DNA from: a virus
DNA: 64,000 nucleotides
Virus record (IMG/VR): IMGVR_UViG_3300046804_001245
Location: 32,001-96,000 of that record
Direction: 5' to 3' (one strand)
Shown: positions 6,686-38,527 of the stretch, piece by piece
Layout: each line of letters starts with the position of its first letter
How positions within the stretch are numbered: position 1 is the stretch's first letter
The notes under the pieces: model-generated
Told to the model about the DNA's origin: nothing
Seen by the model: only the letters and a program-made list of their open reading frames with translations
The model's database searches: none
Position numbers and translations under genes: made by a program

Positions 6686-7225
6686 ATGGAAATTGAATTA
6701 GCTGATCATTTTGATCGCATGAACAAGGTTGTTGAAGAATTACTCAAAGGTAACAATCCCACTCAGATTGCCTCTATAACGGGTTTTAAACGTGCAGATG
6801 TCCTAGGATATATAGACGAGTGGAAAGAGGTCGTTAAAAGCGATTCTGGAGCCCGTGATAGGGCAAAGGAAGCCATCTCTGGAGCAGACCAACACTATGC
6901 CATGCTTATTAAAGAGGCCTGGAAGACCGTAGAGGATGCAGATCAGGCGGGACAATTAAATATAAAAGCAACAGCATTAAAACTAATTGCAGATATTGAA
7001 GGCAAGCGTATTGGAATGCTACAAGAAGTCGGATTGTTGGACAATCAAGAATTGGCATCACAGGTAGCAGAGACCGAACGAAAGCAAGATGTATTAGTTA
7101 AAATATTAAAAGAAGTAACAGCAACCTGTCCTAAATGTAAAATGGAAGTTGCAAAACGTTTGTCTCAAATAACTGGAGTAGTAGAACCAGTTATTCTTGA
7201 TGCAGAGGAAGCAAGTGGATCTTAA
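6686..7225 (+). CDS. probable terminase small subunit
   Basis: N-terminal HTH-like segment, helical, directly upstream of and overlapping terL; leaderless start after TATAAT. Confidence 0.55.
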   Translation: MEIELADHFDRMNKVVEELLKGNNPTQIASITGFKRADVLGYIDEWKEVVKSDSGARDRAKEAISGADQHYAMLIKEAWKTVEDADQAGQLNIKATALKLIADIEGKRIGMLQEVGLLDNQELASQVAETERKQDVLVKILKEVTATCPKCKMEVAKRLSQITGVVEPVILDAEEASGS

Positions 7226-15243: not shown

Positions 15244-15535
15244 TTTAGGTGTAGATACAGACGATTTTGACTGGTGGCATCTAGCAGTATGTCGTGGAAT
15301 GGATACAAATCTATTCTATGATAAGTATGAAGTAGACGCCAACATAGCAAAAAATATAGACGACGCATGCTTGTCATGCCCAGTACTTAAAATGTGCTAT
15401 GAATCAGGCATAGAAAAAGCAGAGTATGGAGTATGGGGTGGCGTCTATATGTCATCAGGAGAAATAGATAAATCTAAGAATCTCCACAAAACTCCAGAAA
15501 TTTGGAAGAAACTAAGGAGTAAAGGTGTCGCTTAG
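15224..15535 (+). CDS. whiB: WhiB-family Fe-S transcription factor
   Basis: AVC...ACLSCPVLKMC...YGVWGG: four Cys plus the GVWGG turn. Confidence 0.92.
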   Translation: MSNILNDLGVDTDDFDWWHLAVCRGMDTNLFYDKYEVDANIAKNIDDACLSCPVLKMCYESGIEKAEYGVWGGVYMSSGEIDKSKNLHKTPEIWKKLRSKGVA

Positions 15536-26773: not shown

Positions 26774-26998
26774 TTACACATTGAAGTAGAATTCATCTCC
26801 CTCATTTAAATTATAAAACTCATTGAATTTATTCTTCAGCAAAGGGTCATCATACAATTGGATTAATTTCCAATCTGCATACATGGTTCCCTCATCTAAA
26901 TTGGACTGATTAAATTGGTCAAACAGTTCCATTGCTACAGCATGAATAATTTCACCTGTATCTGCTTCAGTCATATCGTCAAATACCGAGTGTTGCAT
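26774..26998 (-). CDS. hypothetical protein
   Basis: 74 aa; TGTCAG-N10-TATACT promoter at 27042-27063 inside the upstream gene. Confidence 0.65.
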   Translation of the reverse strand: MQHSVFDDMTEADTGEIIHAVAMELFDQFNQSNLDEGTMYADWKLIQLYDDPLLKNKFNEFYNLNEGDEFYFNV

Positions 26999-27771
26999 TA
27001 TGCTTTCTCCATTCTATATTCAGGTACGTGGTCGGAATCCAAGTATACTTTATGGGTCTGACATTCTTTGACATTATCTAGGTCTGCCTCCCCAAGCCAA
27101 TTACAAGCAGAGCAGATTTCTCCACAATCATTATCGCAATATTCCATTGTATTATCTGAATCACAATCACGACATTTGTTCTCATACTCTGAGATAGATA
27201 TAACTTCTCCACGAAGTAATTCCATTTCTCCGCCCCAACCTGTTTCTTCCTCATAAGATAGAGTTAGCAATAAACTAGGATATTGTGCAGATAATTTTTG
27301 GAGGGCAGGAACAGGAGGAGACCAAGCAGTATTAAAGTTATAATAAACTACTAAGTTCTCTCCATTTTCAGTAGGCCCTTCCATATATGTATCTGAATAT
27401 TCTTTATTATCAGATATAGCCACATCCCATTTTGTTCCCCAATTAGTTATATTCCATGAATACCAAGACTTATCTTCTAATCTAAGTTTTTCAGTATCAT
27501 TCCACCAATTAGGGTCAGATACATCTAATTCAGAACGAGTTGGTTGTGCAACATATTCTAAATCAGTTATACCTGCTTGGCGGTGGTTATAGATATTATA
27601 AAAAGCAAAGACAGGATTAGGATATGTAGTCTGAGATACTTCCATATTTCCAGTAGTTTTATTCCATGAATCATGTAACATGACGAATGGTTTATTCATT
27701 TGTTTTACAAGGTCATTTACCAATTCAGGAGAACCTTCAATTGTAAGACCGTTATAGCACCAATTTGGCAT
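26998..27771 (-). CDS. YubB/Api92-like ferredoxin-fold protein
   Basis: MPNWCYNGL, W...NWGTKWD, FNTAWSPP, YEEE; start corrected to the ATG after GAACGAAAGGAA. Confidence 0.75.
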   Translation of the reverse strand: MPNWCYNGLTIEGSPELVNDLVKQMNKPFVMLHDSWNKTTGNMEVSQTTYPNPVFAFYNIYNHRQAGITDLEYVAQPTRSELDVSDPNWWNDTEKLRLEDKSWYSWNITNWGTKWDVAISDNKEYSDTYMEGPTENGENLVVYYNFNTAWSPPVPALQKLSAQYPSLLLTLSYEEETGWGGEMELLRGEVISISEYENKCRDCDSDNTMEYCDNDCGEICSACNWLGEADLDNVKECQTHKVYLDSDHVPEYRMEKA

Positions 27772-27902
27772 TATATATTCCTTTCGTTCGGTTGAATGGT
27801 CCAATTATACAATGCCCCACCGACATTTGACAATATCCCCCAAGTTTCGGGAAATTACATTAGATCTCGTAACAGAGCTATATGGTCCTCAGGCATGCGG
27901 GC

Positions 27903-28047
27903 AAAAGCAAATCCCCCAGGAACCAACTGGGGGATATTGACACGTAGGGCTGCTAGTCAAACGAAAGGAATTAAGTAAACACTGCTTTACTTAGCGACTT
28001 GGGGAATCCCTATAGCCGCACCCTACATTTAAATGGGCCTAAGCCGT
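27903..28047 (-). ncRNA. candidate sRNA with anti-leader seed UUCCUUUCGUUUG
   Basis: TGgTATAAT at 28054-28062, closing stem GTAGGGTGC/GCAGCCCTAC, internal hairpins, terminator ATCCCCCAG/CTGGGGGAT plus TTGCTTTT. Confidence 0.65.
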
Positions 28048-28054
28048 AGATTAA

Positions 28055-28459
28055 TTATACCAGAAGAGGGACGTCGGTATATTTCTCTACGAATGTGCGT
28101 AGGTCCATTACGAAGAGGGGCTCATTGCTCATACCACGAACCTTGTTGTCCAAGTTATAGAATGAATCCTCTGTATGAAGACTAAAAGTCATTTGTGTAA
28201 AGTCGACGATAGCAATCTTGTGCTCGTTATCGCCAATCTCATTTACATGCAGGCCCCATCCAGTCTCCATAGACCAACCGTCGCCAATCATATGACTGAT
28301 TGCGATACGTGTTGCATATGAAGGGTCCGACCAACGAGGCTGTGCTTTTGCAACCGCCTCTGCTAAATTGGCAAGCATGTTGTGGCCCGCCCAGTGTCCA
28401 TACAGTACAATTGTGTTACCGTTCGGCTGTACAAATCCGAAGTTTGCTCTGTCACCCAT
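28055..28459 (-). CDS. hypothetical phage protein
   Basis: MGDRANF..LYGHWAG..RWSDPSYATRIAI, 134 aa. Confidence 0.75.
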   Translation of the reverse strand: MGDRANFGFVQPNGNTIVLYGHWAGHNMLANLAEAVAKAQPRWSDPSYATRIAISHMIGDGWSMETGWGLHVNEIGDNEHKIAIVDFTQMTFSLHTEDSFYNLDNKVRGMSNEPLFVMDLRTFVEKYTDVPLLV

Positions 28460-29571: not shown

Positions 29572-29686
29572 TTGTTTCCTTTCGTTGTTATTGACCGTAT
29601 TATAGCGGACCTGACTGACAAAATCCAGGGGTCCCGCCCCTTTGTCGTAACAATCTTTTTTGGATTTCACGTATGCGGGCGAGCTG

Positions 29687-30804: not shown

Positions 30805-31098
30805 AGATTTATCCTTTCGATAGTTGATTAGTTCCTGAATTATACACTACGCTGCCGACATTGTAAATAGTTAGTTCCAATATAGGGCAAATCGGACACC
30901 CTGTGAGAAAGCTCACAGGATCCAGGGGTATTTTAGACTTGACGTAACGGGGCTTCGCCCCCCACAGTTGTGCGGGCCTTCAGCTCATGTACTCGTTGAT
31001 CACATCCAGCGCATTACACAATTGGCAGAAACATTCGCCATGGTCCATAACATCTTCCCAAATTAATTGCTGCAATTCGTGCACCGCATATGGACCGC

Positions 31099-31818: not shown

Positions 31819-32697
31819 ATGGGTAATTCTATCACCACATACCGACAGCGAATTCGGCAACAGTATCTAGACATTCGGCGCATGCCCAATCATCGCCATA
31901 GACTTCGTATTCTGCCTCATCGACAAAATAGGTGGCAGTACCACAGATTTCATAGTATAAACAATTTACTTTTATCATTTAGTTTCCCTTTCGTTATGCG
32001 GATATTATAACAGATTAGACTGACAATTTATCTTCGACACGCCACCTTGCGACATATTTTTCTAGGTCTGCTAGGTTATCATCTGTGAGATAGGTGGAGA
32101 TTACGCCAAAAGAATATGCGTATTCGTTATAGCCTTTTTCTTTTGCGTAGGCTAGGAGGTCATTTAGAATATCGTTTCTGTCTTTCATTTATTTTCCTTT
32201 CGATATGCCGACATTATAAACTAAACCGCCGACATTTTCCATTCCAGCTTGGGCGTGTCGCAAATTATTTTTGTGGGGAATCTCACAAAATCCAGGGGTA
32301 TTTTTAAGTTGACGTAACAAGCTCGGCGCCCCCACTCTTTTGCGGGCCATTTTGGGAAGATGGGGCGGGGATCTAGATGATTACACAGTTCAAACCCGCC
32401 CCAAGCTTTATGCTAAACCAATTTCTACTTTAGTTAGTTTAGTTGGCTTATATTTAGTTACTGTTTCCATTGGTAGAAACAGAGCCACAGTTTTTCTTTT
32501 CTTTAGTTTATCATAAACAAAAGCACGAACATTTCCAGAAAATTGGTTTAGATTAGAAAAAACTAATTCTGTTAGGTGTTCTTTATCTACTCCGTCATCT
32601 GAGAAAAGAGTCAAATCATTTTGTTTTACGTCATCATATATTTCGATACGATACCGATTACGCATTTTATTTCTTTCTGTTAGTAGGGATTTTAGTT

Positions 32698-33213: not shown

Positions 33214-36200
33214 TTTATTTCCTTTCGTTAGTTATGAGCAAGAATTATAGCAGGGGATACTGACATTGTATCCCCCACCTATTTAGTTATTTAGCAGGTG
33301 CGCTAGTCCAGCGTTCCTTGCCATTGACATCAAGCAGAATACGATTTACACCTGAAGGGTGATTATCTACTGCTTTGATAACGCCTGTCACGCCACTATT
33401 AGTGGTTGTGTAGGTCTGTCCGATTTCCAGAGTTGCCATTTATTTTCCTTTCGTTGTTGTGGAAGGCTATCCTAGCATAGCCCACCGACATTTTAGAGCC
33501 ACGCCTCTAGGTGGTGTTGTTCTACGATAGCCCAAGCGGGTGCGGTATTGAAACCTTTATAAGTTATGCCTTCGGGCATTGGTATCTCACGATCAGTTTC
33601 GCCTTCGTTGTAAGCCTCAATAGCCTCAATACACGGCAATACCATAGATTTAGGAACGGGCGGGTAATGATTAGAAGTTAGGTGAATACCAATAGCGGTA
33701 GATAAGTCTAATTCGCCATTGGCTAATTCTGTTGCGAAGGTGCTACCCATTTAGCACCTCGTTTCTCATTGTTTCAATTTCGTCAATAGTAGCGATTAGG
33801 TCTTTTACTTGGCTTTCAGTTAGTAATACTTTAGTAGCCTTATCTACTGCGGTGCTTGCTAGCATAGAAGCATAGACGAACAAGGCTTTGGCTATTTGTT
33901 CATCATCTAATTCTTTGTAAGAGTGTGTAATAAATTGAGCGAAGCCCATAGCCTCGTCATCAAAAATAGTTTCTTCAGTTGCCTGAATAAGAGCGGTTGC
34001 GGTTGCTATCATTTATTTATTTCCTTTTCGTTTAGTGGTGGGTAGATTATACACCTACCCACCGACAATTTAGGCAAGGGCTAAAATAGCCTGCGTTGCA
34101 CCTAGATTTACGGCATCTAATTCTGCCTGTAATTCCTCGGTTGTCATTTTAGTAGGGTCGCCTACTAATTCGGAGATAGCGTCACGATTAATCATCTCTA
34201 CCATTTCGGTAGGCATGCGTGAGATTTGTGGATAGAAAGAGCCATTAGTATCTAGTTTAGATACAAAATTAACTCCATTAACGGAGAACGGGAACGAAGC
34301 CCAGTTATCTGTGTTTAGCATTTTTTCCTTTCGTTTGTTTGATTAGCGCAATTATAGCGTAGGCTACTGACAAATTAGTTTTATTCTGCCCGCCAGCTTT
34401 GTGATAAACATCACAAAAATCCAGGGGTTTTAAACTTGACTCGTAACAGGAGTTTGCCCCACTCTCCTTTGCGGGCGATTTGTTGAAAGTTCAACCAATT
34501 TAGTTGATTATTCAACAAAACGTTTTTTATGTTTTGATTTTCTTTTGTAAATTTTTTTAGACGGAATTGGTTGCGCCGCATTACTACGGCGCAATTCCAA
34601 AACTTTTTTAATTCGTGGTAAATTTTGGAACACGATAATTGCTCGCTTCGTAGAATTTATTCGCATCAAATCTAGGATTATCTTTTGCGAACATCAACGC
34701 AAAATCAACAACCATTTTAGAAAAAATAGCGGGGTGAGTTTTATCTGAAACATACCGCAGAATTTCTGCGGTAGCGACATAGTCTTTACGAGTCATCACG
34801 ATTTTACTCCGTCACACTCAACAACATCAAAAACATCAAATTTTGCCAAGTCTGAGTCTGGCAATTGAAATAGAATTTTGTTTAGCGCAAAAACCGCTTG
34901 TAAATCGGTTTCTGCTTCGGTAACAAAACTAATCAAGACATTTTTTTTCATTAGTCATTCTCCTTATCAAATAGAGAGCCGTCATAGTGAGATGTTGGAT
35001 TACAGTCACAAGGCTCAATGTTGTAATCCTCAGCACCGCCATAGAAAAGCCAACCTTTTCCGTAGCAGGTATCGCAGTCAAAAGCGAGAGTATGAATTGT
35101 TTTCATTTTTAGTTTTCCTTTCGTGTTGTTTCGGTAATTGTAGCATTAGCCACCGACAAAATTGCCGATAGATTAGAATTGCGTTTTTCTTTTACTTCCG
35201 CTAAACGCTGGGCGATAATGAATTCTCTAAATTCTTTTAGATCCATTTTAGTTTTCCTTTCGTTTTGTTATTGGTTGAATTATAGCGTGGGGGTCTGACA
35301 TTTTCCCTAGTTAGGGAGAATGTCTGGACCATAATAAGCAACGGCGGAAACGATGTTCATCATTCCCTTATATTCATTACAGGATACGCATACGCTATTC
35401 CAGCGGTCATAAGTTTTTGAGCAGAATACGCAGATGTTATCCTGAAGGCTAAAGCCTAGATTTTCAATTTCTCTAAGTGTAGTCATTTAGTTTTCCTTTC
35501 GTAGTAAATCAGATTATAGCGGAAGCCACCGACATTTAGTCGGCAACTTTCACGGCGACAGTCGCCCATTTATTTCCGTTGAAACGGATAGCGTAGGCTT
35601 CATAGCCGTCAAGCCAAATATCCTCACGCTTTTCTGCGAAAGTAATTTCGCCGAATTGGTATTTTCTCGCAATAGAGCGAGGGTAATAAGTCTGACCTAC
35701 AAGAAGGTCGGGAATTGAATAAGTTTTCATTTAGTTTTCCTTTCATTTTGTTACTCCGTGAGTTTATCAAATTGGACTGACATTTTCAAATCGAAAATCG
35801 GTATAAATCGGACATTGTGATAATCATCACAAAAATAAATTAAAATAAATTTGACTGGTCAAACTTTTTTCGGGCGTGTCGCAGGATTTCGGGAAATCGG
35901 ACATAATGGACTTAAAGGATAAATCGCCCGCACAACTGTGCGGGTTGCCGCAGCTTTTGTCAAGCCGACACGCCGTTAGGTTAGTGTGAGATACGCCACA
36001 AGAAACCCTAGCCCTATACAGAGCGACAACAGGGCGGCGGCATGGAGTAGGTGTATCATTTAGCACACCTCTCACATGGTTCTATTGTATATTCATGACG
36101 ATCACCTACATAGATGACCTTTCTACCATAGCACATAGAGCATTTCATTTTAGACCGCCTCTTCCAATTCTGCCAAAGCCTCATCTTCTAATTCTAGCAT

Positions 36201-37764: not shown

Positions 37765-38259
37765 CTATAATATATCAGTAAAGTAAGTACCACCTACATA
37801 AATTTTTGAGGCGGTAGTAAGAGTAATCGGATATCCCTGATAAAACAAATGTTCAATAACTGGTTTAGGATTAGGAGTATCTCCACCTAACCAATGTAAA
37901 TCTAAAGTTTGACTTCCAGGCATATGATCTGCTTGTATCTGGACATGTCCATTCAATGCATCTGGTGCTTGTGTTGGATCTGCCCAAGCCCAACCTGAAA
38001 AGTGATTTGATGAATTATTATGGGGCGGGAGCGGAAGATCTACCTTAAACTGTCCAGTTCCAAAATTAGTCACAGTAGATAGATTAATATCTATCCAGAA
38101 CGATACTAGATATCCATTCTTGACGTAATAGGAATTATAGGTGGGGTAGGTAGAATTAGCTCCAGTAAATACTAATCCAGTTGCCTGAAATACAGGACTA
38201 TATCTAATAGGTGGTATATGTAAAGTTGGAGATGTAAAGCCTACTGAATTAGATAGCAC
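37765..38259 (-). CDS. beta-rich virion/fibre-tip-like protein
   Basis: YYVKNGYLVSFWIDI..TNFGTGQF.VDLP. Confidence 0.55.
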   Translation of the reverse strand: MLSNSVGFTSPTLHIPPIRYSPVFQATGLVFTGANSTYPTYNSYYVKNGYLVSFWIDINLSTVTNFGTGQFKVDLPLPPHNNSSNHFSGWAWADPTQAPDALNGHVQIQADHMPGSQTLDLHWLGGDTPNPKPVIEHLFYQGYPITLTTASKIYVGGTYFTDIL

Positions 38260-38527
38260 GTTCTATTACCATTACCGCCGCCGTCATTGTATTGGCAGAG
38301 CATACTGCATATAAATGACTATATGCGGAGAGTTCAATTGTAAATGCTTGTCCTGGAAATAATTTAAAGCCATAGCTGCTAGATGACACAGAATCTGTGC
38401 CCAAATAAATATAGCCAGAATCATTGTTATTCTGCACAACTAAAGTATTGGCAGACTGTGTCGAATCTACAATTGTTAGCTCTGTTGGCGTAGATGTGGA
38501 CAATGTAAGATTACGAGTTCTGATCAT
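38249..38527 (-). CDS. small beta-sandwich hypothetical protein
   Basis: LVVQNN..GYIYLG..V....GFKL.PG. Confidence 0.65.
   Translation of the reverse strand: MIRTRNLTLSTSTPTELTIVDSTQSANTLVVQNNNDSGYIYLGTDSVSSSSYGFKLFPGQAFTIELSAYSHLYAVCSANTMTAAVMVIERAI

Follow-up and report, generated by a model that had tools for sequence, protein, structure and literature searches.

Does the 280-nt gap between two minus-strand genes of this phage encode a regulator, and if so, which genes would it address? The DNA analyzed here (the window, 64,000 nt, whose coordinates are used throughout) comprises bases 32001-96000 of a 106,882-bp viral record, the ends of which are direct terminal repeats. This is a freshwater actinobacterial phage, and the small RNA described below is also encoded by dozens of its relatives. 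The phage carries a WhiB gene (15272-15445), and many of its genes are leaderless (TATAAT, 6-7 nt, ATG) or have AGGAG/GGAGG sites; together these features of gene content and gene starts point to an actinobacterial host. Leaderless mRNAs are common in Actinobacteria, and apparently leaderless gene starts standing 6-7 nt after a TATAAT box, with no room for a Shine-Dalgarno (SD) element, were seen at 6686, 9356, 12535, 16296, 16624, 17209 and 38527 (the last starting the minus-strand ORF 38249-38527), among others. The gap and its borders contain the following features:

28055-28459, minus strand: upstream gene, 134 aa, phrog_31860
28054-28062, minus strand: extended -10 promoter TGgTATAAT, read directly, overlapping the last codon and the stop codon of the 134-aa gene
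27903-27935, minus strand: intrinsic terminator with a 9-bp GC-rich stem, a 7-nt loop and a U-tract (terminator scan; stem and T-run at 27935-27911)
26998-27771, minus strand: downstream gene, 257 aa, DUF1281_C

The initial annotation had proposed a non-coding minus-strand unit of ~145 nt with its own extended -10, and the sequence between 28062 and 27903 reads as claimed; the TGTCRG hexamer of the neighboring promoters is indeed absent 10 nt upstream of TGgTATAAT (28062-28054), and the terminator scan placed the 9-bp stem plus T-run exactly where a GC-rich terminator had been annotated (27911-27935). Across 44 aligned relatives the TATAAT is invariant and the preceding TG nearly so, and an extended -10 also precedes the scaffold at other genome positions in relatives L007, L027 and L068. 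A hairpin and T-run are kept at the terminator position, with stem sequences that differ between relatives. No conserved open reading frame was found in the unit, as its sole minus-strand ATG runs straight into a stop codon and relatives differ by indels. Hence, as expected of a trans-encoded sRNA, an own promoter and a Rho-independent terminator enclose a short non-coding unit, and its sequence features support a transcription unit for a small RNA that is discrete, structured and conserved. Many genes outside the 25-36 kb gene island discussed below have promoters of this plain extended -10 class, which shows control separate from that of the island but gives no evidence for the later expression or the timing of an off-switch proposed in the initial annotation.

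By blastn against loci fetched via the two flanking proteins, the unit was found at 70-94% identity in dozens of contigs, the related contigs being drawn from IMG/VR metagenomes. Adding a covariance model built from the core (R1, scoring 100.1 bits on the copy in this window) gave a family of 96 loci and 65 distinct variants in related viral contigs. The unit usually lies directly after the 134-aa gene, and in L007 and L027 it occupies another genome position, accompanied by the same promoter and terminator. The family does not correspond to a described one in the sources searched: Rfam at gathering thresholds gave no match in the region (just two tRNA genes in the whole window), and at E <= 10 the sole match was that of the terminator to ctRNA_pGA1, a chance match of 15.6 bits. 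Covariance models of curated families (C4 RNA, 6C, RsaE, riboswitches, Y RNA and tRNA-like) gave no match near the gathering score, ARAGORN detected no tRNA or tmRNA at the unit, blastn of the region against 50,697 cultured-phage records returned no match, and no description of the RNA was found in the literature.

The fold of the RNA was more stable than that of shuffled sequences (-51.7 kcal/mol, z = -3.35), and modeling on the alignments supports a core folding as a three-way junction of the helices P1, P2 and P3, with these elements:

27944-28026, minus strand: conserved core, predicted three-way junction (RNAalifold and explicit pair counts)
28026-28020 with 27950-27944, minus strand: P1, closing stem of 7 bp, 96.7% paired, four of seven pairs compensated
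28019-28014 with 27999-27994, minus strand: P2, 6 bp, 100% paired, two pairs compensated
28010-28001, minus strand: P2 cap, GGG-AUUC-CCC
27993-27986, minus strand: junction strand J2/3, UAAGUAAA
27985-27981 with 27957-27952, minus strand: P3, 99-100% paired, three of five pairs compensated
27958-27972, minus strand: seed AAUUCCUUUCGUUUG in the P3 apical loop, with the invariant core CUUUCGUU at 27967-27960
28036-28045, minus strand: P0, small 5' hairpin GGC/GCC in the minimum free energy fold, longer in most relatives and absent in some

Compensatory changes were found in all three helices, and the covariation score was 0.256, as compared to 0.133 in shuffles (0 of 500 reaching it) and 0.05-0.10 when the pairing partners were slid. 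P0 appears in alignment A1 as a variable hairpin-forming sequence at which the MAFFT columns are poorly registered. Two stems had been annotated initially. The closing stem exists, although the version supported by covariation is the 7-bp P1 given above. The internal hairpin UAAGUAAA/UUUACUUA is able to form in this phage, but it was dropped in favor of P3, because at 87% pairing none of its pairs has changed in a compensatory way and several subgroups of the family have lost its 3' half by deletion; a conserved strand of the junction is the better reading of UAAGUAAA.

The same rearrangement moves the putative antisense sequence. The annotated string AUUCCUUUCGUUUG is present at 27971-27958, but it does not lie in an unpaired junction as had been thought; since P2 and P3 are formed by the bases next to the closing stem, it is placed in the apical loop of P3. 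There it is accessible, with an opening energy of 0.94 kcal/mol in this phage and a median over 63 variants of 1.35 kcal/mol for the six-base core CUUUCG, against 3.06 in control windows; in a subgroup reading UAUUUCUUUCGUUGG the seed is partly sequestered (3.5-3.9 kcal/mol). The core CUUUCGUU is invariant in the 44-sequence core alignment A3, and in the model-fitted alignment A4 the seed stands in P3 in 61 of 65 distinct variants, two of these 61 being shifted in the alignment so that CUUUCGUUGG appears at the motif columns. P3 itself varies freely in sequence and length (5 to 8 bp with quite different sequences across the wider family set), and yet it presents CUUUCGUU. The unit thus has the conserved and accessible seed expected of a trans-encoded sRNA. 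Among the four remaining variants, L027 and L068 are seedless and the other two, of the L007/L019 subgroup, carry UUCCUUUCG in the loop of P2 while P3 is a short plain hairpin; ten leaders are still present in this subgroup. Since the motif has shifted to another loop, the comparison argues for selection acting on an exposed copy of the motif rather than on its position.

Which sequences, then, could the loop address? Its complement is the leader ACGAAAGGAA, of which eight exact copies stand on the minus strand of the window (27778, 29576, 33219, 33445, 34325, 35115, 35254 and 35493), whereas the single plus-strand copy, at 27961-27970, lies inside the RNA. Genome-wide, CGAAAGGA occurs 12 times, 11 times on the gene strand and once, again inside the RNA, on the opposite strand. 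The uniqueness of the antisense copy, as well as the lack of a start codon behind it on the plus strand, had been annotated initially and both were borne out on reading the sequence. We considered whether the plus-strand motif is a ribosome binding site without a gene and rejected this, as no start codon follows and the promoter and terminator are on the minus strand. At up to one mismatch, ACGAAAGGAA gives 16 matches as compared to 3.8 expected, a number reached by 0 of 100 shuffles. The leaders of this type are:

27778-27788, minus strand: leader AACGAAAGGAA of the 257-aa gene (26998-27771), the strongest predicted target (14-bp duplex, -20.1 kcal/mol)
34325-34337, minus strand: leader CAAACGAAAGGAA of an 83-aa gene (34070-34321), 13-bp match, -18.7 kcal/mol
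26219, 29576, 31985, 32194, 33219, 33445, 35115, 35254, 35493 and 35737, minus strand: further leaders of the same type

In the own genome of the phage, a predicted duplex of -12 kcal/mol or lower was obtained at 8 of 32 ORF starts in the island and at 1 of 140 other starts, so that the seed is complementary to SD and start regions above chance. The gene-strand copies lie 10-19 nt after promoters of the form TGTCRG-N10-TAnnnT and 5-10 nt before the ATG; it is therefore the SD-like spacing to the ATG that is kept, whereas the distance from the -10 varies. With about 25 nt the leaders are short, and inhibitory structure is not obvious in them; genes outside the island have AGGAG/GGAGG sites or are leaderless. 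Most predicted targets are small ORFans, in addition to one DUF932 and one DUF1281_C protein.

There are 19 TGTCRG-N10-TAnnnT promoters on one strand in this genome (24500-37500, minus). This motif resembles the mycobacterial PafBC/RecA-NDp DNA-damage promoter. The RecA-NDp motif is the one used by PafBC in mycobacteria (PMC6789036). Relatives G001-G025 have 11-20 such promoters where the RNA is present and 1-11 where it is absent, and seedless genomes retain the promoter class (11 in G008 and 10 in G025).

If seed and leader are partners, they should be kept or lost together, and this is what was observed across relatives. The 15 records with the seed RNA have 6-11 copies of ACGAAAGG on the gene strand, as compared to at most two, the level of a reversed-pattern control, in eight records without it (large or complete relatives), leaving aside the seed-positive G016 (three leaders) and G022 (two leaders), where the RNA is at a contig end. 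Similarly, five near-complete genomes that do not have the RNA contain 0-3 copies of AACGAAAG on either strand. Seed and leader are thus jointly present or jointly absent, and the comparative evidence supports the earlier proposal that an accessible, conserved loop complements the leaders of the island. When placed on a tree of the 257-aa gene, the state of the seed RNA changes at least six to eight times, and six contrasts between lineages with and without the RNA all point in the same direction; based on our own reading of the tree and on per-locus leader counts, a sign test on these six would give p of about 0.03. An independent-pairs test in Treekit, run with a coarse coding of leader type, did not reach significance. 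Furthermore, a single 10-kb module contains both the RNA gene and the targets proposed for it; the co-occurrence may therefore in part reflect module swapping, and recombination of modules in mosaic phages could inflate the association.

The paired cores of seed and leader are invariant on both sides, and for this reason no compensatory change is seen within them. For the flanks, clean compensatory covariation between seed and leader was not found and the signals were mixed: where the seed of a phage reads A-CUUUCGUU, the leader position opposite holds G (70%) or A (25%) instead of U, and in relatives AGCG or CACG often replaces AACG in the leader belonging to the downstream gene, with no consistent pattern of compensation between seed flanks and the leader of the adjacent gene.

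A further distinction comes from the base at which the two leader types differ. In relatives without the seed RNA the leaders read AGAAAGGA (AGAAAGG type), with an A rather than a C at the matching position, so that the island leaders are one base, C for A, apart from the 16S-optimal sequence. We take the standard 16S tail to be UCCUUUCU, of which AGAAAGGA is the full complement and which also fits the ordinary AGGAG sites of the phage; the anti-SD of the host was in turn deduced from the AGGAG/GGAGG sites of the phage and the AGAAAGGA leaders of relatives. As AGAAAGGA already fully complements this tail, the C of the island leaders is unexplained by 16S pairing. This C faces a G of the seed and vanishes where the seed is absent, a pattern that fits the proposed specificity of the seed beyond the anti-SD.

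The anatomy of the unit, its conservation, fold and loop accessibility, the complementarity and the co-occurrence with the leaders are what the sequence analysis shows. On balance, we regard it as probable that they reflect a trans-acting RNA which pairs with the island leaders and blocks their translation. Host RNA polymerase would start near 28047 at the extended -10 and stop near 27903 at the terminator, producing an RNA of about 145 nt in which the three-way junction would serve as a scaffold holding out the long apical loop. The loop part CUUUCGUU (here AAUUCCUUUCGUUUG) would then pair with (A)ACGAAAGGAA 5-10 nt before the start codon in about a dozen small island genes (25-36 kb), which are driven by the TGTCRG-N10-TAnnnT promoters. 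Since such pairing would cover the SD element, 30S subunits should be kept off the island mRNAs, which might also be exposed to decay. As the loop is exposed and exactly complements the leader that about a dozen genes carry, one RNA probably controls the block as a whole and would turn it down together. The pair of leader C and seed G would form an address private to the island mRNAs, so that genes with ordinary AGGAG sites or leaderless starts are spared. Transcription, pairing in vivo, repression as the direction of the effect, and any timing are the parts of this model that we infer.

Alternatively, the function may reside in the conserved scaffold, as a binding site for a protein of host or phage or for a ligand, with the loop mimicking the 3' tail of 16S rRNA or serving as a protein recognition site and the leader complementarity being a by-product. 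The complementarity would then be incidental because loop and leaders both relate to the anti-SD/SD pair, and the seed does share UCCUUUC with the standard 16S tail. Moreover, the junction nucleotides GGUGC, CUAAGUAAAGC and GCAGCC are conserved to the same degree as the seed, and the scaffold is retained in L027, which has no seed, and in L068, where P3 carries another loop, so that it may have a function of its own. However, the invariant C-G-U-U of the loop exceeds the 16S tail and matches the A-A-C-G of the leader, which 16S pairing cannot explain, and it is exactly this leader C that is lost in phages without the seed; a pure 16S mimic does not predict all-or-none co-occurrence with a non-optimal SD. 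We consider this explanation unlikely.

The same complementarity and co-occurrence would be expected if the pairing were real but positive, the RNA stabilizing the island leaders or shielding them from a host nuclease or defense factor. The constitutive type of promoter would agree with this, since the RNA would then be present as soon as infection begins, a stage at which the island genes are presumably required. On the other hand, the duplex covers the GAAAGGA needed for 16S pairing at initiation, and leaders of about 25 nt without obvious inhibitory structure offer nothing to open. SD occlusion is the usual outcome of sRNA pairing at such sites, and a protective role therefore appears quite improbable to us.

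Still less probable is a riboswitch or attenuator governing read-through into the 257-aa gene. A three-way junction followed by a terminator does resemble an aptamer with its expression platform, the same gene generally follows the element, and the scaffold of L068 lacks the terminator and has an ATG 17 nt later. In contrast to what is expected of such an element, which stands in a 5' UTR with no intervening promoter, a separate promoter (27833-27804) and a short leader serve the downstream gene beyond the terminator, a different gene follows in L125, L134 and L140, and the unit of L007 and L027 lies elsewhere with its promoter and terminator unchanged; nor was there any Rfam riboswitch match, even at E <= 10. 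Finally, it is hardly credible that the common 10-mer is a DNA operator bound by a regulator directly behind the island promoters, and its copy in the RNA gene a further, inverted operator: the motif is repeated beside promoters and a DNA-binding protein would be indifferent to strand, but its spacing is fixed to the ATG and not to the -10, the inverted copy is always in an RNA hairpin loop with a covarying stem, has moved from the P3 to the P2 loop in one subgroup, and is antisense in every locus.

Returning to repression by pairing with the leaders, one of the closest precedents is the c4 antisense RNA of phages P1 and P7, in which loop sequences pair around the ribosome binding site and block translation of a phage gene (PMC12197685). 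Like c4, and like phage immunity RNAs such as sar of P22, the present RNA is a small structured phage RNA with loop-exposed pairing at a ribosome binding site. In contrast, c4 acts on one operon (icd/ant) in immunity and is processed from the same transcript, whereas the present RNA has its own promoter and terminator and matches about a dozen separately promoted mRNAs via a shared leader; it also differs in fold, in having no Rfam match and, on the evidence here, in its actinobacterial host. Among Gram-positive bacteria, the UCCC loops of S. aureus RsaE and RNAIII, B. subtilis RoxS and the actinobacterial 6C RNA are loop seeds of sRNAs pairing with SD regions. These are likewise stand-alone RNAs with an intrinsic terminator and a pyrimidine-rich apical loop directed against the purine-rich SD of several mRNAs, but they are encoded by the host, have other folds, form distinct Rfam families and target unrelated host genes, whereas the present RNA has a seemingly co-evolving leader shared by one block of phage genes. 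With regard to its role, the parallel lies with phage T4, in which RegB cuts GGAG in early SD sequences and RegA vies with the ribosome for a large number of early mRNAs (PMC3014915). Both cases involve global post-transcriptional shut-down via a short motif in translation initiation regions, although RegA and RegB are proteins, while here the proposed effector is an RNA, the motif a private SD variant and the shut-down itself deduced. By analogy, we propose that the present RNA works most like c4 and the SD-targeting Gram-positive loop sRNAs, with a role paralleling that of RegA and RegB; it belongs to none of these families.

A more speculative version, which we hold only tentatively, is that the mRNA block is 'barcoded' by one SD base (AGAAAGGA to ACGAAAGGA) that is read by the phage RNA only, with a modular scaffold whose seed may stand in either loop or be exchanged, forming an RNA counterpart of T4 RegA/RegB for genes with DNA-damage-type (PafBC-like) promoters; a host factor may dock on the conserved scaffold as well. 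To our knowledge, phage small RNAs regulating the phage itself are limited to few cases, almost all in enterobacterial temperate phages and with one target each. If repression by this RNA is true, its 65 distinct variants represent a widespread RNA family in uncultured freshwater actinobacterial phages, in which one RNA addresses a dozen separately promoted genes via a leader that has seemingly co-evolved with it. This would be a sequence-defined example of block-wide post-transcriptional control in a phage group without a cultured model, and a natural pair of orthogonal SD and antisense RNA could be useful as a regulatory part.

Several elements seen alongside the unit deserve mention. In L068 (4820-4940), the scaffold homologue scores 41.7 bits, carries the other P3 loop CCUGGGGGUGUUG and lacks a terminator; a -10-like TATATT precedes the ATG that stands 17 nt downstream, and the leaders of this phage are of the AGAAAGG type. 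This element may be a seed-swapped or cis-acting relative of the RNA. In relative G004 (L019:5320-5375), a second hairpin follows a gene end, with the stem GGGGGAGGUUGG/CCAACUUCCCCC and a loop in which CCCUUUCGUU, a further anti-leader motif, is exposed; the hairpin lacks a U-tract, and a promoter comes next. At L155:1731, L151:1761, L046:1073, L131:1749 and others, the sequence behind a TGTCAG promoter is a conserved stretch that looks non-coding, UCUCnnCAUGACCAACGAAC...UAUACAUUUGUCUG, without an SD or start codon, which may be another small RNA or a long leader; this candidate second small RNA of the relatives (promoter, then CATGACCAACGAAC...) has no counterpart in the window. The island itself contains five copies of a bipartite box, as compared to 0.02 expected:

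27868-27902, 29646-29680, 30943-30977, 32313-32347 and 34442-34476, minus strand: GCCCGCA-N22-GTTACG

Each box lies some 25-45 nt upstream of the next TGTCRG promoter; one copy begins on the base right after the U-tract of the small RNA and another 5 nt past the 3' end of tRNA-Asp. In all probability the box is a boundary or upstream promoter element that does not belong to the RNA. In relatives, the first half of the box is conserved after the RNA (GCCCGCA...TGAGGGTA) and is partly palindromic.
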